Positions 3,720 to 63,999 of a stretch of DNA of 64,000 nt are shown here, piece after piece. The notes under the pieces were generated by a model. That model was not told the DNA's origin. It made no database searches and was given only the letters and a program-made list of their open reading frames with translations. How positions within the stretch are numbered: the first letter of the stretch is position 1; each line of letters opens with the position of its first letter. The stretch comes from Chlorobiota bacterium (lineage in GTDB: Bacteria; Bacteroidota; Ignavibacteria; Tepidaquicellales; OLB5), in the NCBI GenBank assembly GCA_022616535.1, contig JAKEEM010000047.1, forward strand, positions 1,563 through 65,562, given 5' to 3'. Both the position numbers and the translations under genes were made by a program.

Positions 3720-6700
3720 GGGCAAGCTCAACATTTCTAATATGATTATTGAAAATGGCCCTGAAGCCAAAAGGGAAGATTCCGAAGACCTTGTCGAGCA
3801 AGCCCTCAATAAGACTTACTGGAGAAGCTTTAAAGAATTATACAATGACCCTGACTTCAAAGACGCCGTAAAATATGAGTTCACAAAAGAATCCGAAGAA
3901 AAACCTGATTTAAGCAAGCTTTCGGGAATTTCTCGCAGAAGGTTTCTTGCTTTAATGAGCGCATCAGCCGCTTTAGCCGCAGCAGGATGTTCAAACTATA
4001 AAGATAAGGGCCTGGTGATTGCCTACAATCAGAAACCCGAAGAAGTTGTGCTGGGACTTCCGAACTATTACGCATCAGCCTGCACAGGATGCGGGAGCGC
4101 TTGCGGAATACTGGTAAAAACACGCGAAGGCCGCCCCATAAAAATTGACGGCAATCCAGACCACCCTGTAAGCAAGGGAAAAATCTGCACTAAAGGGCAG
4201 GCAAGCATTATGAACCTTTATAATCCCGAACGCCTGCGCGAACCGATGTTTAATAAACTGCAAACATCGTGGGATGAAGCAAATAAGAACATTGTTAATG
4301 AGTTAAAGTCCGCTTCATCATCGGGCAAAGAAATTGCTATTATTACCCACTCGGTTTTATCACCTTCGCTTAAAAAATTACTTGATGAGTTTAAAGTCAC
4401 CTACCCGACTGCTAAAATATATTCATACGAAGTATTTAACGATACTCCAAAGCAGAATGCCTGGTTTAAATCATACGGCAAAAGAACTATTCCTGCTTTA
4501 CAGCTTGATAAAGCTAAGGTAATCCTGGCTTTGGAATCTGATTTTCTCGGCAATGAATTGAACCAGATTGAAAACACAAGACTTTATTCCCAAACCCGCG
4601 ATGTGATGAGCAAAAATGAGTTCAGCCGTCTCTACGCTGTTGAGGGCGCTGTTACGCTTACAGGAACTAATGCCGACTACAGAATAAGGCTGAGAACAGA
4701 TGCAATCGAAGAGTTTGTAATATGTATTTTGAATGAGCTTGTGAACAGGAAGAAAGTCTCCGCATTTGCTGCTGATTCAAGAGTCACATCTGTTTTAGCA
4801 AGCTATAACCTAAATGACTTTGCTGCAAAGTATTATCTTGACCTAAAATCTTTAAATCAGCTCATCGAGGATCTGACAAAACATCAGGGCGAGGGAATTA
4901 TCCTTGCGGGCGACAAGCTTCCAGAATCGACTCACATTGCAGCCAACCTGCTGAATGAAGTTTTGGGAAATACTAAACTTTACTCAAGTGAATCCGAAAA
5001 TGTTGAGCTAATGCCGCTTAGCACAAATGATGAGCTTAGCGCTCTTGATGATAATATGCAAAAAGGCGGAGTTGGAGTTGTAATTCATTTTGATACAAAC
5101 CCCGTATTCCATTTTTCTCCTGATTATAATTATGCAGAAGCGCTGAAGAAAGTCCATACGGTTGTAACATTAACGGAGGAAATATCCGAAAGTGCTGAGC
5201 TTTCCGGCTATGTTCTGCCGATTAATGACCCGCTTGAGTCATGGGGCGACTTTAAAACAAGAACGGGTTTCTACAGCCTGCAGCAGCCCATAATTGCTCC
5301 TTTATATAATACAAGGCAGAAGGAAGCAATTCTGCTGAATTGGAAGGACTTGGAAAAACCGTATAATGAAAAAATTTACAACGATTATATCAGGGAAAAC
5401 TGGGAGAAGAATTTGTATCCTGTCTTTGGTTCGCTGGCTCCGTTTAATAAGTTCTGGTTAACAATTTTGCATGACGGTGTGGCATTAGTGAACGAGAAAT
5501 CTGAATCAGCAGGAACATTTTCAACTGGTGCATTTGCTGAGTCATCAAGAATGAAAGCAGGGAGCGATTTTATCGTTCTGCTTCAAAACAATAACAGCGT
5601 TGGCGACGGGCGTTTTGCCTCAAACGGCTGGCTGCAGGAGCTTCCCAACCCGATTACAAAAACCGTTTGGGATAATTATGCAGCACTATCGCCTCAGGCG
5701 GCATCGGAGATTGGAGTTAACTCAAATGACTTGGTTGAAATAACTCTCGGCAGCAAAAAACAAACACTGCCGGTATTTGTTCAGCCCGGACTTGCGGATA
5801 AAGTTATTGAAATCTCTCTCGGTTACGGCAGAACTGCAGCAGGTGCGGTCGGCACGGGCGTAGGAGTTAATGCAAACGTTTTAATTTCAAAAGCACCCGC
5901 AATAACTGAAAGATTTTACAATAATGCACAAATAACAAAAGTAAGCGGAACGTACGAAATCGCTTCAACTCAGGAACATTACCCGATTGACAGTGACCCG
6001 CTTTTGAAGGACATTCAATATAAGCGTGGTATAATAAGAGAAGGAACTTACGAAGAATATAAAACCAATCCGAAGTTTTTAAAAGAAAAAGAAGGGCGCT
6101 TAAATCTCCAGCCTATCAACAAGCCGCCTGTCTACGAAAGCAAAGACTATACCGGCTACAAATGGGGCATGGCTATTGATTTGAATAAATGCACTGGATG
6201 CGGAGCATGTATAACAGCATGCAACGTTGAAAATAACATTCCTATTGTGGGTAAAGACCAGGTTATAGTTAACCGTGAAATGATGTGGATACGGCTTGAC
6301 AGGTATTATTCAGGCACTCCCGATGCACCAAAGACAAGCTACCAGCCGATGTTATGCCAGCATTGCGATTATGCACCGTGTGAAAACGTTTGTCCCGTGG
6401 TTGCAACAACACACAGCAATGACGGCTTAAATGCAATGGCATACAACAGGTGCGTGGGGACAAGATACTGCTCAAATAACTGTCCCTACAAGGTGCGCAG
6501 GTTCAATTATTTCGATTTCAGAGACCATTTCAGGGATTCGATACAATATGCAGAGCCGCTTGATTTATTGGCTAATCCGGAGGTTACGGTACGCTCAAGA
6601 GGTATTATGGAAAAATGCACATTCTGCATTCAGCGGATTATGAAGGAACGCCAGGATGCAATCCAGGAAAACAGGAAAGTAATCGGCTCAAATGTAAAAA

Positions 6701-29411: not shown

Positions 29412-29451
29412 TTAACTGATTGGAATTACAAATAGAAATTCTGTCAAGTCA

Positions 29452-29482
29452 ATTTACCTCATTAGGCACTAATGAGGTAAAT
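29452..29482. repeat. perfect 14-bp inverted repeat ATTTACCTCATTAG-gca-CTAATGAGGTAAAT
   Basis: Read directly. The half-site CTAATGAGGT recurs at 29696-29710 and 48145-48159. It is flanked by the 8-bp direct repeat ACTGATTG (29415-29422 and 29502-29509). Confidence 0.9.
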
Positions 29483-29716
29483 GTTTATAAGGTTCATAAT
29501 CACTGATTGTTACGAAAGTTTTAAAAGATTTATCCCTCAAAAACACTCTTAACAAACTATCTTTAAAAACGATGAGCAATCAAAACATTTTTCCTTTTTT
29601 TTGTTATTTTCTTTTTGTTTTCCCCCTTCTTTTTTTTTCAATTCCTAATTATTAATTGCTAATTATTAATCGTTTACTGACTTTCACCTCATATATGCCT
29701 AATGAGGTGAATACAC

Positions 29717-29747
29717 TTGCACTCGCAATTTTTATATAGTAATTTTG
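29717..29747 (+). promoter_or_regulatory. candidate Bacteroidetes-type promoter (TTG-N20-TAATTTTG)
   Basis: TTG at 29717-29719 and TAATTTTG at 29740-29747 (TAnnTTTG consensus). The same 20-nt spacing occurs at the 48177/48200 locus. Confidence 0.4.
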
Positions 29748-29751
29748 CCAC

Positions 29752-30118
29752 GCTTGGTTCAACAGCGGCTGGAGGGCTGCTGCAGGTTACCAGTCCGGTA
29801 CTGTGTAAAAGCGGTTTCGGACGGGCGATGAGCCGTTCCGCCGCCTCTAAAAGGCGGGATTTGTACAACTGGCCAAGCTTTGGTTCCGGGAGTATATGAA
29901 AGTATAACCGGAGTGACGACCGGTAAAGTACAAGATTGAGGCTTCACCCTCTGTAATGCGTAGCAGGGGGAGTTGGAAGTGCGGGCTTTTGACTCACTGC
30001 CGCGGATTGTGCTTTATTGTCAAACAATCGAGTACGAGTCTGTTTACCAAAAAAGTAAGCGGCATGGTCAATTAAACCGACTTTCAGCCAATTTAAACCC
30101 ACCTGGGTGGTATTTTTT
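29752..30118 (+). ncRNA. candidate approximately 365-nt structured non-coding RNA of unknown family
   Basis: GC-rich, hairpin-dense stretch in a 970-bp gene-free gap. It starts just after the promoter-like box and ends with a short GC hairpin (30097-30110) plus T6. It contains only junk ORFs of 69 aa or fewer. No hallmark motifs of RNase P, tmRNA or SRP RNA. Confidence 0.3.
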
Positions 30119-30241
30119 AAAATGTCAAATTTCAAAGCTCAAATGTCAAATTAAAAATCAAATATCAAATAGTAAAGCGTAAAAAGGCAGAAAGCAAAAA
30201 AACAAAAAAAAGTAACGGCGAGGACACCTCTCCAGAAAAAT

Positions 30242-45092: not shown

Positions 45093-45104
45093 TTGCTTTT
45101 TGTC

Positions 45105-45143
45105 ATTCCCGCCAGCCTGCAGCAGGCAGGCGAAGGCGGGAAT
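45105..45143. repeat. GC-rich palindromic repeat ATTCCCGCC-AGCCTGCAGCAGGCAGGCGAA-GGCGGGAAT
   Basis: Read directly. It shares CCGCCAGCCTG...CAGGCAGGC with 38170-38224 and GCCTGCCTGCTGCAGGC with 48230-48250. Confidence 0.85.
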
Positions 45144-45202
45144 CCATATTGATTAAAAACTCAAAAATAACAAAATGGGAATTTAGAAGCAGGGGGAAAA
45201 AA

Positions 45203-46066
45203 TTAGTTACCTAATAAAATTACGAAACAATCAGTTTCGTATCTCTTTTTACCTATATTTTTATGATTGAAATCAAATGATATGTGGAATGGTTCTTGCA
45301 AATTTGCTCTATTGATAGCTTCCTGAATTTCTTCTTCTGAAACTTCATCTTTTAAATATACAACCAATAACCTAGGATCAGAACCAAACCTACCTTCATC
45401 TTGATAAGTATATAAAAATATTGCGACTTTATCTGGTGATTCTAATGCAACTTTTTTCCAACCACTTCCATAGTGTTTGATAAATTCTTTAGTGGGGCTT
45501 TTAGCGACTTTTTGATCATATGATATGCCATTTACAAAAAAATCTACACTCCCTGTGTGTTTCAAAGTTGGTATGATATTTTCATTTTTCTCAAATATCA
45601 ATGTTTCTAAATAATCATTTCTAATGGTGTTTAATTCTTTCATTCGTCTGTATTTTACAGCGGCCTTTTTTACTCTAGTATCCTTGATCATACCACTATC
45701 GGACAAACTATTTATCCTTTGGACTAACTCATCAAATTTTCCTTGACTACATGGCCACTCGATATCACCCAAGCCTAAATCCTTCCATTCTTTTTTTAAA
45801 ACCTTAACCACATTTATACATTCTTTCCCTTTTTTATACTTATCCGAGCTTTTGAAAAGTTCTCTTATGATTTCCCTAGCTTTCTCATAATCCCAATATT
45901 TAGAAACTAAATCATAATAATAGTCGGCTTTTGCTTTTTTTAAATGTGCGATTTCTGGAATACTAATATTTTTATTTAAACGAATAAGGTATTTTGAAAT
46001 CGTTTTCTTGTTTCCTAATATCCTTTTAACAACCTGTGCCTCAATACTATTAGTTATATTAATCAT
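45203..46066 (-). CDS. putative type II restriction endonuclease (partner of the adjacent methyltransferase)
   Basis: 287 aa with a 4-nt overlap with the MTase gene. Candidate PD-(D/E)xK site in GSVDFFVNGISYDQKV. No other recognisable domain. The region is visibly AT-richer than its neighbours. Confidence 0.45.
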   Translation of the reverse strand: MINITNSIEAQVVKRILGNKKTISKYLIRLNKNISIPEIAHLKKAKADYYYDLVSKYWDYEKAREIIRELFKSSDKYKKGKECINVVKVLKKEWKDLGLGDIEWPCSQGKFDELVQRINSLSDSGMIKDTRVKKAAVKYRRMKELNTIRNDYLETLIFEKNENIIPTLKHTGSVDFFVNGISYDQKVAKSPTKEFIKHYGSGWKKVALESPDKVAIFLYTYQDEGRFGSDPRLLVVYLKDEVSEEEIQEAINRANLQEPFHISFDFNHKNIGKKRYETDCFVILLGN

Positions 46067-47154
46067 GTATGTTTTTTAAACAGAAAGATATACTCGTGTT
46101 TAAAAATATAAAATCCACCAACAAGTGCTCTGTATCTCCACAATTCTTTTTGGTTCATTTTTCCCTTAGTTTCTTCAAAGTTCTTTACGACTATACTCTT
46201 TAATTTATAACCTTTACTCATTACTAAGTCCATTGTTTTAAAACCCAATGGAATCCAGTCACCCTTTGAATATTTATCACCAATTACAACAACTAAATAT
46301 CTTCCTTTTTCTAAGATATTATAAGTATTCTCAATGACTTTAGCAAACAAACTTAAAAAATCATCAACACTTGATGCATTTGATAAATCTCTTACATCAT
46401 CACTAAATTTTATTATATCCCAATAAGGTGGATGCATAATAATTAATTGTACTTTATCAATTCCTAATTTTTTTAATTCGTCATCTAAACTAATACTTGT
46501 ACTGTCATTAATTAAAATTTCCTGAATGGTGCTGTGTGTAAAAAGTTCTCTTTCTTTATCAATGTTATCCTGTGCTATTTGAGCTATTTCTTTTTGTAAT
46601 TCAACACCAATTCCATTCCTTCCCAATCTTTGGCATTCAATTAGGGTGGTACCACTTCCCAAAAATGTATCCAACACCCATTCATTTCTCTTAGTATATC
46701 TTTTTATAAATTGTTGCGGTATCTGTGGTATGAAGTTCCCCCAATATGATGCAGTATGAACCCCAGAATTATCTCTTTTATCCATAATCCACAAACTATC
46801 CGTAATTATATCATTATACTCTTTCCATTGATTTAGATTAAGATCATTTATTTTACTAGTTTTTATTTCTGATAACCCTTTTTTAAGTCTATTAACATAA
46901 TATTTTGTCCGTTCAATTGTTTTCGTTTCTAATATTTGGTGTAATTCTTGCTCAATATATTTACTACTCACGGAAATTGTTCCTCCATTGGTTCCAATAT
47001 TTAAAAAACCTAGTTTATCTTGTTTAATACCTTTTAGGTTTTCCTGTATAATCTTAATATTACTCTTAATTTCATTAAGATCATCTTTTTGAGCAATTTT
47101 TTCTAATGCTTGAAGTATTTTATTCTGATTTATTATCATTGAAGTGTGCTGCAA
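46063..47154 (-). CDS. DNA methyltransferase (N6-adenine or N4-cytosine), with motif I preceding motif IV
   Basis: VLDTFLGSGTT (SAM motif I), then about 65 aa later IIMHPPYWDI ((D/N/S/H)PPY motif IV). There is an approximately 160-aa N-terminal extension. Confidence 0.8.
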   Translation of the reverse strand: MQHTSMIINQNKILQALEKIAQKDDLNEIKSNIKIIQENLKGIKQDKLGFLNIGTNGGTISVSSKYIEQELHQILETKTIERTKYYVNRLKKGLSEIKTSKINDLNLNQWKEYNDIITDSLWIMDKRDNSGVHTASYWGNFIPQIPQQFIKRYTKRNEWVLDTFLGSGTTLIECQRLGRNGIGVELQKEIAQIAQDNIDKERELFTHSTIQEILINDSTSISLDDELKKLGIDKVQLIIMHPPYWDIIKFSDDVRDLSNASSVDDFLSLFAKVIENTYNILEKGRYLVVVIGDKYSKGDWIPLGFKTMDLVMSKGYKLKSIVVKNFEETKGKMNQKELWRYRALVGGFYIFKHEYIFLFKKHT

Positions 47155-47237: not shown

Positions 47238-48017
47238 ATGCGCCTTCATTTGTTTGAGTTTGAGGATTTGTCGTGGTTTCCCGATGTGATAAGGCGATGC
47301 CAGACCGATTATCTCCATTTCGTAATCAGCAAGTTTGAAATTTACAAACCTGCCGTTCCACTTGTAAAAGAAGTGATTGATAAAACGGGAACGAATGAAA
47401 TTATTGACTTATGCTCAGGCGGAGGCGGCGGAACGGATGTGTTTCATAAAAATCCCGAAGAGATTACCGGAAAACAAATCAAAATGACACTAAGCGATAA
47501 ATATCCTAACCTGACTGCTTTCGAACAAATTAAAACAAGCACAGGCGGGAAAGTGGACTATATAAAAGAATCTGTTGATGCTTTGAATGTTCCGCAGAAC
47601 ATAAAAGCTATGAGAACATTATTTTCATCGTTTCATCACTTTAAGCCTGAAGATGCTAAGTCAATTTTGAAAAGTGCTGTTACAAATGAAATCCCGATTG
47701 CTGTATTTGAAGGCGCGGAAAAAAGTATTTTAAATTTCCTTGGAATTCTTTTGCTGACTCCCCTGACTTTCATAATCATTACACCATTTATCAAGCCGTT
47801 TCGGCTCAGCAGGATTTTCTTTACTTATCTGATTCCGTTAATACCCCTCACAACTGTGTGGGACGGGCTTGTGTCAGTTCTTAGAATGTATAGTCCTAAT
47901 GAAATGCTTAAAATGGCAATGGAAGTTGACTCCATTAACTACAAATGGAGCTCAGGCAAGGTCCGGGGAAAAATAGGAAATGCGGTTTTGTATTTGGTGG
48001 GTTATCCTGTAAATTAA
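47238..48017 (+). CDS. SAM-methyltransferase-like protein with C-terminal TM segments (hypothetical)
   Basis: EIIDLCSGGGGG resembles SAM motif I. Two hydrophobic helices lie near residues 165-205. TATATTTG box at 47223-47230. Confidence 0.45.
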   Translation: MRLHLFEFEDLSWFPDVIRRCQTDYLHFVISKFEIYKPAVPLVKEVIDKTGTNEIIDLCSGGGGGTDVFHKNPEEITGKQIKMTLSDKYPNLTAFEQIKTSTGGKVDYIKESVDALNVPQNIKAMRTLFSSFHHFKPEDAKSILKSAVTNEIPIAVFEGAEKSILNFLGILLLTPLTFIIITPFIKPFRLSRIFFTYLIPLIPLTTVWDGLVSVLRMYSPNEMLKMAMEVDSINYKWSSGKVRGKIGNAVLYLVGYPVN

Positions 48018-48069
48018 TTAAACAATAAATGGAATTTCTGAAAATACTTTCTCTTATCGTGCAGTTCGG
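47955..48069 (+). repeat. direct repeat copy 1 (last 20 codons of the 47238 gene, the spacer, and a 14-codon 5' fragment of the 48593 gene)
   Basis: CGGTTTTGTATTTGGTGGGTTATCCTGTAAATTAATT matches 48540-48576 at 34/37 positions. ATGGAATTTCTGAAAATAC...TTCGG matches 48593-48633 at 34/41. The truncated ORF MEFLKILSLIVQFG(YTIIN*) spans 48029-48088. Confidence 0.85.
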
Positions 48070-48511
48070 ATATACAATTATTAATTAATAATTACTAATT
48101 AGTAATTGATTTTGTTAACCGAAAATCGGATTTTACTCTATATGTGCCTAATGAGGTGAGAGTTGTTAAACAGACCTTGACAAATAAATTATAAAGTGTT
48201 AAATTTACCTTGTTACTGTAGGGCAACCCGCCTGCCTGCTGCAGGCAGGCCGGGTCGCACCCTGCATTACAGTGTCCTTCGGCTGCGCTCTCCGAAGGAA
48301 TCCTACGGACTGGATTAAAAAATGGAAAAAATGTCAAAATTTCATCACGGTGAAAAACATGCTAAAAACTTACAAAAAAAGAGACCCTTCGTTTCACTTA
48401 GAGGTTGCCAACTTTACATAATGTCGGATTTGAGACACGGTTTTTTTTTGCCGTGTTATTTTTGCTCAATACGCCGGATTTTCGCACTGCCAATTTGTCC
48501 GTGATAATTTT
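48070..48511 (+). other. 442-bp gene-free insert between the direct repeats: AT-rich palindromes, TGCCTAATGAGGTGA box, promoter-like TTG-N20-TAAATTTA, three GC hairpins, and an intrinsic terminator
   Basis: Box at 48145-48159. TTG at 48177-48179 and TAAATTTA at 48200-48207. Hairpins at 48227-48254, 48275-48299 and 48299-48316. Terminator ACACGG-T9G-CCGTGT plus TATTTTTG at 48435-48463. Confidence 0.5.
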
Positions 48512-48633
48512 GGCGAAAACGGAGGAAAAACGAGGAATTCGGTTTTGTATTTAGTAGGTTATCCTGTAAGTTAATTTTGCTATTTTGCAATTATGGAACT
48601 TCTGAAAATACTCTATTTAATCGTTCAATTCGG
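48512..48633 (+). repeat. direct repeat copy 2 (orphan 3' fragment GENGGKTRNSVLYLVGYPVS*, the spacer, and the true start of the 48593 gene)
   Basis: See copy 1. The orphan fragment parallels GKVRGKIGNAVLYLVGYPVN* of the intact gene and ends with a stop at 48572-48574. Confidence 0.85.
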
Positions 48634-49453
48634 CTTGCCGCCGACATTCCCCGAAGGCGATGAAAATCTTCAGCAGGGGCTTGAAAGCAAAATCGAAGTC
48701 CTTTGCAAGGATAACTTTTCCGGGCAGACAACAACTTTGCACGTTTTAAAGAACAATCCCAAATTTAAAAAAACAACCCCCTCTCTTTTTACGGAAGACA
48801 ATACAAAAAACCTGTATATTTTCCTGACGCATATCGATTCAACTTACCTGTATATTGAAGATTGCGATTACAGCATGCTGAAGTTCATGCGTTATAAAAC
48901 CAATCACCAAAACTTACGCTACGAGGTTGTTGATTCATCGGATTACAATATTAAAGAAGAAAAAATGCGGGTTATCCGGTGGACTAAAGGAATTGATTTT
49001 AAAATTTTCGAAAACTCCACGGTTTTTGAAACAAAATTCGATACATATATTGAATACTGGCAGTGTATTGATAAACTTGCATTTTCCCCAAAATACCCGT
49101 TTGCGAAGCCAAAACCAACTGCGCTGCGTAAAAATTACACCGAGGAACAAAGCGAGGATTTGAAATACATACTCTCGCACCCGATTATGGTTTTATCAGT
49201 AATTCCCCTTGATGATTTAAGCTATGATTTGCCTTTTAATCTAACAGGGAAATCTTTCGAGACATCGCTTGAATCGACTAATCAAGGCGACATCGAAGGA
49301 ACGGGCATCGATTTGGACGGCGATAAAACGCTCGATGCTTTCTGGTATATGGATATAATTGACACCAAACCCGCAGAGGTCTACACACGGTTGTACATAA
49401 ATGTCGAAGGCAAATGGAAGCCCGTTTGGTACACTTACTTTAAGGAAATGTAA
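48593..49453 (+). CDS. hypothetical protein
   Basis: 286 aa with no signal peptide or domain I recognise, apart from a DxDxDG-like stretch (GIDLDGDKTLD). Confidence 0.5.
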   Translation: MELLKILYLIVQFGLPPTFPEGDENLQQGLESKIEVLCKDNFSGQTTTLHVLKNNPKFKKTTPSLFTEDNTKNLYIFLTHIDSTYLYIEDCDYSMLKFMRYKTNHQNLRYEVVDSSDYNIKEEKMRVIRWTKGIDFKIFENSTVFETKFDTYIEYWQCIDKLAFSPKYPFAKPKPTALRKNYTEEQSEDLKYILSHPIMVLSVIPLDDLSYDLPFNLTGKSFETSLESTNQGDIEGTGIDLDGDKTLDAFWYMDIIDTKPAEVYTRLYINVEGKWKPVWYTYFKEM

Positions 49454-62355: not shown

Positions 62356-63207
62356 GTGAACAAATTATCAATAGAGAAACAGACCAGAATTCTATCCTTA
62401 CTTGTAGAGGGAAATTCAATCAGAAGTATTGCTCGCATTATGAACGGCGATAAAAAAACCGTTATAAGAATGCTTGAAATGGCAGGCAAAAAAGCCCTTG
62501 AGATACACGATACTTTAGTAAATAATGTTAAATCTAACCTTGTGCAGTGTGATGAAGTTTGGGCTTATGTAGGCAAAAAGCAGAAACAACTTGATTTAGA
62601 ACAAAGATACTATTCAGATAAGAACGAACTCGGAGACCAATATACATTTGTTGCTATGGACGCTGAAACAAAACTTGTTATCAATTTTTTAATTGGTAAG
62701 AGGACTTACGAAAATACAATCTCTTTCATAAGAGATATGAACGCCAGAATAATGACAAGATTTCAATTAACAACGGATAGCTTTCAACCTTATTACAACG
62801 CTGTAAAGAGAACATTCGGAAACGAAATAGATTATGCACAGATACACAAGGTTTTTAATGAACCAGAGAACGCTGAAAAAAGATACTCGCCCGCTCAAAT
62901 AAAGAAAATTCAGATTATTCCCTTAATCGGTGAACCTAAACTACATCACGTTTCTACAAGCTATATTGAAAGACAAAATCTTACAATGAGAATGCAGATG
63001 AGACGTTTTACCAGATTAACAAACGCATTCAGCAAAAAACTTGAAAACTTAAAGTATGCAGTAGCTTTGCATTTCTTTTATTATAATTTTATAAGAGTTC
63101 ACAAAACATTAAGAGCTACACCTGCAATGAAAGCAGGGATAGCAAATAGTTTCTGGACTTGGGAAATGTTTTTAGGTTTTGAAAATGAATATAAAAAGGT
63201 TGCTTAA
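62356..63207 (+). mobile_element. IS1-family transposase gene (single ORF, N-terminal HTH); element ends not defined
   Basis: HTH (RILSLLVEGNSIRSIARIM). DDE contexts are QCDEVWAYVG, LTTDSFQPY and YIERQNLTMRMQMRRFTRLTNAFSKK, which parallels IS1 InsB ...[25 protein letters not shown] as I recall it. GTG start. Confidence 0.7.
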
Positions 63208-63420: not shown

Positions 63421-63999
63421 TTACTCTATTTCAGTATTGTATATGAACGGTGGGGACTTAATCTCCATGTACAGTTTACACAAATCTCCTATTTCGAGAA
63501 TTTTAATGTTATTTTTTTCAGCAAATTTAAGAGCTACTTTACTAATACCATTTAATGTTACTAGAATAGCATAATTTGCATTATGATTAATTTTGGTGCC
63601 AAGCAAATCTCTTAATGCATGTTCACCTATTTTTGTCTTCCATTTTTTACATTGAACAACATATATATTTTTATCTTTTTCTAAAAAAATATCTACACCT
63701 TGATCTCCACTAATTTTAGTAGTTACCGCCTTGTAGCCTTTTAATTTATACAATTCTGCAACTTCATTTTCAAACTCAGTAGGGTTTAAGTTATGCCAAA
63801 ATGTTTGAATTTTTCTCTTTTCTATTTTAATATAATTATTCTTAAATGTTTTGAACCTTGATAATTCAGCGCAGTATTTTTGATGATATTCATTATATTT
63901 TTTGTAATTTATATACTCATCTGAATTTTCTAATTCTCTCAGTTTATTTATCCATTTCCTATTTAAAATAGGTGAAAGAAATTTAAATGTTATGGTCAA
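63421..63999 (-). CDS. Mrr-like restriction endonuclease domain protein (possibly truncated by the window edge)
   Basis: C-terminal Mrr_cat pattern FENEVAELYKLKGYKAVTTKISGDQGVDIFLEKDKNIYVVQCKKW. The ORF reaches the last base of the window (TTG at 63999). Confidence 0.7.
   Translation of the reverse strand: MTITFKFLSPILNRKWINKLRELENSDEYINYKKYNEYHQKYCAELSRFKTFKNNYIKIEKRKIQTFWHNLNPTEFENEVAELYKLKGYKAVTTKISGDQGVDIFLEKDKNIYVVQCKKWKTKIGEHALRDLLGTKINHNANYAILVTLNGISKVALKFAEKNNIKILEIGDLCKLYMEIKSPPFIYNTEIE

Follow-up and report, generated by a model that had tools for sequence, protein, structure and literature searches.

A lineage-specific noncoding insert between two diverged copies of a gene junction in an Ignavibacteria genome, a possible integration scar

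In Escherichia coli, prophage e14 is inserted in icd in such a way that the gene extends into the prophage, which supplies its last codons; at the far end of the prophage lies a 163-bp pseudogene of the icd C terminus, and most of the differences between the two copies are synonymous (PMC13626634, PMC6379469). Here, we examined a locus of similar outline in a 64,000-nt stretch of DNA (the window, meaning that whole stretch) from a Chlorobiota bacterium of the Ignavibacteria. Two genes, A and B, follow each other on the forward strand, and the segment that runs from the end of A across the spacer into the start of B is present twice (positions 47955 to 48069 and 48512 to 48633), with the 442-bp cargo (48070 to 48511) between the copies. 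The insertion, which amounts to 557 to 564 bp (the cargo plus one extra junction copy), is lineage specific, since relatives keep an uninterrupted single junction without it. The A locus of these relatives was gathered through look-ups of exact proteins and a scan covering a single genome of each species; L and P numbers denote fetched loci and proteins.

The likeness to e14 (and to phage 21) in icd lies in an insert at the 3′ end of a protein-coding gene, a replacement end supplied to that gene, and a displaced end kept as an orphan, as well as in diverged copies with a synonymous bias (115 to 122 bp here, compared with 163 bp for icd). Relatives have an empty attachment site (attB), one repeat is continuous with the gene and the other is an orphan, and the copy attributable to the element is diverged (14 codons). 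The two cases also differ: e14 measures ~15 kb, has its own integrase, and excises on SOS induction, whereas here there are 442 noncoding bp and no recombinase was found. Moreover, the duplication here does not end at the stop codon but takes in the first 14 codons of the next gene.

Cis-mobilizable elements (CIMEs) have kept attL and attR and lost their integration genes; those described are usually of kilobase size and were recognized through a related autonomous element that uses the same att site. The likeness of our locus to them is descriptive, in that att-like repeats are present and genes are absent, but no autonomous partner was found and the cargo holds no gene remnants. Insertion-duplication (Campbell-like, homologous) gives the same order of target copy, insert, and target copy, in which both copies combine donor and recipient sequence, but it normally involves longer and more identical homology than 13-nt runs at ~82% identity. 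Transposons, insertion sequences (IS), and miniature inverted-repeat transposable elements likewise have direct repeats around an insert that is missing from relatives. Target-site duplications, however, are short (2 to 15 bp) and identical when made. We rejected a transposase target-site duplication, as an earlier note on this DNA had done, because the repeats, ~115 bp long and 82% identical, diverge as genes do, terminal inverted repeats are lacking from the cargo, and only one copy of the cargo occurs in the window. A template/variable pair of a diversity-generating retroelement was rejected too: mismatches fall on A in 10/21 cases in copy 2 and 4/21 in copy 1, the repeat crosses a stop and a start codon, and there is no reverse transcriptase among the neighbors. 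The same holds for integron attC sites, since neither copy has the GTTRRRY / RYYYAAC core and no integrase is present. The insert is an example of a known process and points to no new mechanism or new kind of element.

The duplicated junction and its empty sites

The junction consists of the following parts.

47238 to 48017, + strand: gene A, an intact open reading frame (ORF) of 259 amino acids; NCBI name, class I S-adenosylmethionine (SAM)-dependent methyltransferase
47955 to 48069, + strand: junction copy 1, made of the A end (a weakly similar arm reaching ~47978 and, at 47979 to 48017, the last 12 codons with the stop), an 11-nt spacer, and an orphan B start
48512 to 48633, + strand: junction copy 2, made of a degenerate arm (48512 to 48535), an orphan A end (48536 to 48574), an 18-nt spacer, and the real B start (from 48593)
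48593 to 49453, + strand: gene B, an intact ORF of 286 amino acids

The two copies align in two main blocks, one of 53 nt with 85% identity (47967 to 48019 and 48524 to 48576) and one of 41 nt with 83% identity (48029 to 48069 and 48593 to 48633). In a gapped local alignment, 84 of 103 positions were identical (~82%) and the spacers differed in length by 7 nt; the alignment score was 54, compared with 11.9 ± 1.5 (maximum, 19) in 300 shuffles. The copies share three identical blocks of 13 nt and no longer identical run. The extension to the left, to 47955 and 48512, is weaker (17/28 identical) yet nonrandom (permutation test, P value = 0.002), with only 15 of 127,946 window positions equaling its match. 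The orphan B start in copy 1 comprises 14 homologous codons within an ORF, MEFLKILSLIVQFGYTIIN*, at 48029 to 48088 (N terminus MEFLKILSLIVQFG), and the orphan A end in copy 2 comprises 12 gene-like codons (...NSVLYLVGYPVS*) with its stop at 48572 to 48574. The spacer of copy 2 holds ATTTTGC twice in tandem and a TAATTTTG box at 48572 to 48579, 13 nt upstream of the ATG of B. The earlier note had given these repeat coordinates, best blocks of 34/37 and 34/41, and both orphan fragments, and our recomputation returned the same values; its description of the 442 bp as free of genes, with a promoter-like box, three GC hairpins, and a terminator, was also borne out.

Gene A has 2,758 homologues, in Ignavibacteria and Bacteroidota, and matched no Pfam or NCBIfam model. 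Gene B is narrower in distribution, with only 70 homologues, the named ones being from Ignavibacteria metagenome-assembled genomes (MAGs), and no known domain was recognized in it. Wherever B is present in the sampled Ignavibacteria relatives, it directly follows A; in the source genome, the two genes are 575 bp apart.

The insert with its duplicated junction is a real feature and not an assembly artifact, because two independent NCBI assemblies (L001 and L002) span the complete structure identically, with 100% identical cargo, and two Logan contigs, one per flank, match them at either side. GCA_975096675.1, a Chlorobi/Ignavibacteria MAG, includes a contig that is 99.98% identical to the window. 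The Logan assembly of SRR16971109 breaks in the region of the cargo's AT palindromes (between 48098, where one contig stops, and 48130, where the next begins), which could reflect low coverage, a graph tangle, or population heterogeneity.

We then compared the locus with those of nine related lineages in which gene A is 57 to 84% identical. All of them have an empty site, that is, 13 to 81 nt from the A stop to the B start, a single junction copy, and no insert.

P0002 lineage: A 84% identical, 17-nt spacer
L004/L005/L121/L122 lineage: A 80% identical, 15-nt spacer
L006/L007: A 75% identical, 13-nt spacer
L008, L009, and L010: A 64 to 66% identical, ~13-nt spacer
L011 and L026: A 63 to 64% identical, ~80-nt spacer
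L073: A 57% identical

When the left part of copy 1 was joined to the right part of copy 2, the product aligned colinearly with the single junction of the relatives, and no insert or cargo-like sequence was present at their A-B loci. The earlier note had proposed this comparison and had named a duplication shared by all relatives as the outcome that would speak against an inserted element; the relatives show the opposite. The longer spacers of L011 (4340 to 4416) and L026 (4781 to 4855), of ~80 nt, include a promoter-like TATATTTG box, and B has apparently gained start signals of its own independently in these lineages.

Origin of the extra junction copy

The orphan and real B starts differ at 8 nucleotides within 14 codons, and a codon-by-codon comparison gives only 2 amino acid changes. 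These are F/L at position 3 and S/Y at position 8, and the family is variable at both sites (at position 8, S or T is the family norm and the Y of the host is unique). The six other differences are synonymous and lie in five codons; the host equals L004 at all six, which places these changes on the branch of the orphan. So few amino acid changes had a P value of 0.007 under random mutation, of 0.02 to 0.05 if an in situ duplication had left the orphan neutral and the functional copy constrained, and of 0.3 to 0.86 if both copies had been constrained genes. The orphan is about as far from the host as L004 is: at the B start, orphan and host are identical at 34/42 positions and L004 and host at 35/42; at the A end, the values are 35/39 and 33/39. 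Across the genes, host and L004 are 80 to 81% identical at the nucleotide level, matching the divergence of the repeat.

The orphan A end is uneven. Its right 39 nt, the last 12 codons and stop, contain 4 differences (2 synonymous and 2 nonsynonymous), compared with 12 differences in the 27 nt to the left (15/27 identical; Fisher test, P value = 0.003), where a conserved SGK motif has been lost. Similarity thus falls from 35/39 to 15/27 left of ~47979 and 48536. There is moderate evidence here to argue that homology by descent ends at this point and that the extra junction copy sat in working genes of another, related genome until shortly before it arrived. Because the differences are synonymous biased and the similarity drops sharply at one edge, the copy appears to be a foreign junction homologue and not a decayed local one.

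On these grounds, the best reading is that the locus holds the remnant or a miniature of a site-specifically integrated element, a Campbell-type scar at the 3′ end of A; we put its probability at about 0.4. Incoming DNA from a related, unsampled Ignavibacteria lineage would have carried its own junction of A end, spacer, and B start. Recombination between this junction and the chromosomal one would most probably have been the work of a site-specific recombinase supplied in trans. An identity of 13 nt is short for efficient exchange by RecA and ample for the overlap of a tyrosine recombinase; since identical runs do not exceed 13 nt at ~82% identity, we rate a site-specific recombinase as likelier than RecA. 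Strand exchange would most likely have taken place in or near the 13-nt identical block CGGTTTTGTATTT (47983 to 47995 and 48540 to 48552), a position that would account at once for the degeneracy of the left arm and for the gene-like character of both the A end and the B start. In copy 1, the host's A would then run as far as the crossover and continue into an A end, a spacer, and the first 14 codons of B brought by the element; in copy 2, the element's own noncoding arm would precede the displaced A end, the spacer, and the B of the host, so that integration would have left both genes intact. The degenerate left part of the orphan A end is expected if it is an arm of the element and not a captured gene end. 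The 442-bp remainder would be either a whole miniature, nonautonomous element or what an internal deletion left of a larger one, as in a CIME, and the 14 imported codons of B, being without function, would indicate that the element had picked up flanking donor DNA by imprecise excision. The cargo also has clade-typical motifs in common with a relative and with sites elsewhere in this genome, which would fit an Ignavibacteria donor.

Such an event would have separated A and B, previously a tight pair: transcripts of A should now end at the cargo terminator, and B would be expressed by read-through or from a new start in copy 2, where the TAATTTTG box and the tandem ATTTTGC may be start signals.

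Several points weigh against an integrated element. The ORFs checked in the cargo, beside it, and across the 64-kb window included no integrase or recombinase, so that no counterpart was found to the tyrosine or serine recombinase encoded in or next to elements of the e14/icd type. The occupied site was seen in the source species and in no other lineage sampled, and neither the cargo nor the junction repeat was found again in the sequences searched. No homologue of B had the N terminus MEFLKILSLIVQFG and no homologue of A ended in NSVLYLVGYPVS, so no donor lineage was found. The 14 useless codons of B require that the element gained flanking donor DNA shortly before its arrival; the left arm, at 61% similarity, resembles its counterpart more than a purely element-derived arm needs to; and the statistical case is small, resting on 14 + 21 codons.

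The searches covered the window and more than 100 related or fetched loci, IMG/VR (three exact patterns), phage records, and plasmids, and no further copy of the cargo was found in any of them. In the JGI metagenomes, one exact 23-mer scan, which detects near-identical copies only, gave a single match, at the very end of an unrelated GC-rich contig. The matching 23-mer is cargo hairpin 2 (CCTTCGGCTGCGCTCTCCGAAGG, at L120:1-23), and a chance match was estimated to be unlikely. The 15-mer TGCCTAATGAGGTGA was discarded after it gave 30 unrelated matches in IMG/VR, about the chance level by our own estimate. One of the junction-like patterns had no match in IMG/VR, and the other had 3, inside unrelated AT-rich coding regions; an autonomous element with the same att specificity was found neither there nor at the loci of relatives. 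The earlier note had seen in the repeats the attL and attR of an element bearing its own copy of the target. The synonymous bias and the sharp edge favor the foreign target copy; mobilizability, present or past, gained no support for the 442 bp, as neither a second copy, nor a donor, nor (in the 64-kb window) a recombinase was found.

We consider it unlikely that homology alone, with no dedicated recombinase, drove an insertion-duplication. Under this explanation, DNA of a related strain or species, taken up as in transformation and bearing a junction homologue beside the cargo, would have been circularized or anchored at one end and joined by RecA-type or homology-facilitated illegitimate recombination. 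It likewise predicts orphans with gene-like divergence and empty sites in relatives, it makes an integrase unnecessary (none was seen), and it fits a cargo that is like ordinary Ignavibacteria intergenic DNA. Copies that are ~82% identical with runs of 13 nt at most are, however, generally a poor substrate for RecA, and the donor must already have had the cargo beside a junction copy, which pushes its origin back by one step. In addition, the abrupt change from gene-like to degenerate sequence in the orphan A end is left unexplained.

An in situ event is about equally doubtful. Here, template switching or the filling in of a staggered break would have copied 442 bp from the same genome and duplicated ~115 bp of target, with the orphans decaying afterwards. 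The two copies share states that L004 lacks (CCTGTAA compared with CCGATAA and TTCTGAAAATAC compared with GTATTAAAAATAC), which suggests that the second copy came from this or a close lineage; some stretches of the cargo are similar to loci elsewhere in the genome, and the S at position 8 of the orphan could be the ancestral state of the host. A neutral orphan, however, should gather mostly amino acid-changing differences, and 2 amino acid changes among 8 nucleotide differences have a P value of 0.02 to 0.05, or about 0.007 if all changes fell on the orphan's branch, as polarization with L004 indicates. Uniform decay of the orphan A end would also be expected and is not seen (P value = 0.003). 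The synonymous bias and the uneven decay likewise disfavor the alternative in the earlier note of an old segmental duplication into which an element inserted later. A tandem duplication of the junction with the 5′ part of B was rejected, since the cargo has no similarity to 48634 to 49075.

A special form of the integration reading, in which the 557- to 564-bp unit is a complete miniature nonautonomous cassette, seems improbable to us. Such a cassette would carry a small-RNA gene and nothing else, would depend on a chromosomal or phage recombinase for its movement in trans, and would target the conserved A/B junction of Ignavibacteria. If it existed, its replacement ends for the flanking genes would make insertion harmless while splitting the operon and adding a transcript.

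Far less probable still is an origin from tandem, diverged A-B operons that lost most of the first B and of the second A and kept the cargo in between. Paralogous operons would explain the gene-like divergence of both orphans, but no sampled relative has two A-B copies and no second paralogue of A or B was seen at these loci; the cargo is unlike the regions upstream of A and downstream of B, its order of promoter and then terminator is the reverse of that at a joint between operons, and several independent events would be needed. A larger transferred block that included A was rejected, as the identity matrices of A and B across three lineages showed no clear incongruence. The weakest explanation, two strains collapsed or misjoined at the repeat, has the Logan break inside the AT palindromes (48098/48130) in its favor but is next to incredible given the two NCBI assemblies and the Logan contigs on both sides.

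If the locus is read as an integration scar, it offers a clean natural example from a barely studied phylum of noncoding DNA with a promoter-like box and a terminator placed between tightly coupled genes with neither damaged, the duplicated junction preserving both reading frames. Its signature could help to recognize decayed integration scars in MAGs after the integrase has been lost. Furthermore, expression of the cargo RNA, if it occurs, would make the locus a case in which one event brought both a new small-RNA gene and a rewired operon.

The cargo and its recurring motifs

The cargo holds only short, unsupported ORFs. No coding remnant was found in it: there was no PHROG match, and the concatenated translations of four cargo ORFs (80, 40, 49, and 60 amino acids) had no match among 5.8 billion proteins. 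Its features are as follows.

48070 to 48112, no strand: left end, with two overlapping 18-bp perfect AT palindromes (48076 to 48105) and stops in all frames; resembles 29640 to 29684
48132 to 48159, + strand: half-degenerate dyad motif ACCTCATnnnnGCCTAATGAGGT, with intact copies at 29456 (- strand) and 29697 (+ strand)
48177 to 48205, + strand: promoter-like box, TTGACA-17 nt-TAAATT with a TG extension, 10/12 matches; a consensus match only
48212 to 48465, + strand: putative RNA of ~250 nt (hairpin cluster, A-rich linker, and intrinsic terminator), its transcription predicted
48217 to 48266 (inner stem 48226 to 48255), 48276 to 48298, and 48299 to 48316: three GC hairpins forming the 5′ cluster
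48434 to 48457, + strand: intrinsic terminator, with a T run after it
48466 to 48511, no strand: right tail with no recognizable feature

The putative RNA folds moderately better than its shuffles (minimum free energy [MFE], -75.9 kcal/mol; z, -2.5). Rfam 15 gave 0 matches over the whole window at gathering scores, and at an E value of ≤10 within 47900 to 48700 the best E value was 0.42, to unrelated microRNA models. Judged from the order of promoter, structured RNA of ~250 nt, and terminator, the cargo looks like an independent small transcription unit. A role as a leader or attenuator for B is less likely because the structured domain lies ~120 nt from the terminator.

Parts of the cargo recur elsewhere. 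Its AT-rich/dyad module is found again at 29640 to 29720, upstream of another unannotated structured region. The dyad ACCTCATnnnnGCCTAATGAGGT occurs three times in the window (29456 to 29467, - strand; 29697 to 29708, + strand; and 48146 to 48157, + strand), compared with 0.16 expected. Each copy lies 8 to 17 nt upstream of a TTGACA or TTGCAC box and after AT-rich TAATTATTAAT repeats, and the dyad looks like an operator. Its two distant copies form a 40-nt inverted pair (29445 to 29484 and 29680 to 29719) with its members 195 nt apart. The structured region downstream of them (29745 to 30130, + strand) is a GC-rich, noncoding stretch of ~390 nt between a 118-amino-acid ORF and ispD. It folds far better than its shuffles (MFE, -143.7 kcal/mol; z, -4.37), has a promoter-like TTGCAC...TAATTTTG upstream and a hairpin and T run at its end, and has no Rfam match; we regard it as a candidate for an undescribed structured RNA.

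The GC palindrome of the cargo (48226 to 48255) recurs at 45109 to 45133 and in a relative, at L026:41-61. At the former site, the palindrome, GCCTGC(W)GCAGGC, lies in the loop of a hairpin, TGTCATTCCCGCC...GGCGGGAATCC (45099 to 45149); the orthologous hairpin of L004 is plain, TGTCATTCCCGC-ACAA-ACGGGAATC. The palindrome has the look of a small recurrent insertion of the clade, present in the cargo as well. As its motifs recur elsewhere in the genome and in L026, the cargo seems to resemble native Ignavibacteria intergenic DNA and not phage DNA.

In Hymenobacter, which is GC rich, the homologue of A is directly followed by AT-only repeats of the TAATTAGTAATTGATAATTAG type that are 29/33 identical to the left end of the cargo.

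L053:4781-4813: Hymenobacter AT repeats
L069:4778-4810: Hymenobacter AT repeats
L065:4778-4817 and 4928-4961: Hymenobacter AT repeats

Such repeats may be a generic element of the FCB group (Fibrobacteres-Chlorobi-Bacteroidetes) that provides stops in all frames or is terminator-like.

Genomic surroundings

The other genes of the window are mostly housekeeping genes, among them those for a cytochrome and alternative complex III, glutamine synthetase, enolase, ispD, ispG, ispH, and urocanase. The sole transposition-type enzyme among the ORFs checked is an IS1-like transposase (62356 to 63207, + strand), which is unrelated to the insert and lies 14 kb from it. Its gene adjoins a gene for an Mrr-type restriction endonuclease (63421 to 63999, - strand) at the window end, and no convincing terminal repeats were found for the IS1-like element. 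A link between the cargo and this element was rejected, since their resemblance is only of AT-rich, low-complexity sequence.

The neighbors of the A/B locus are a restriction-modification cassette, YCII genes, and a sigma factor. The restriction-modification cassette (45203 to 47154, - strand), just upstream of gene A, consists of an N6/N4 DNA methylase gene and an ORF of 287 amino acids, with a GC content of 0.26 to 0.30. Direct repeats flank neither this cassette nor the 29.4- to 30.4-kb locus, so there is no second case of the same architecture at these places. The cassette is a second lineage-specific insertion, missing from L004, L121, and L122. SIR2-like genes occupy the same spot in L006 and L007, and the place upstream of gene A looks like a hot spot for defense genes.

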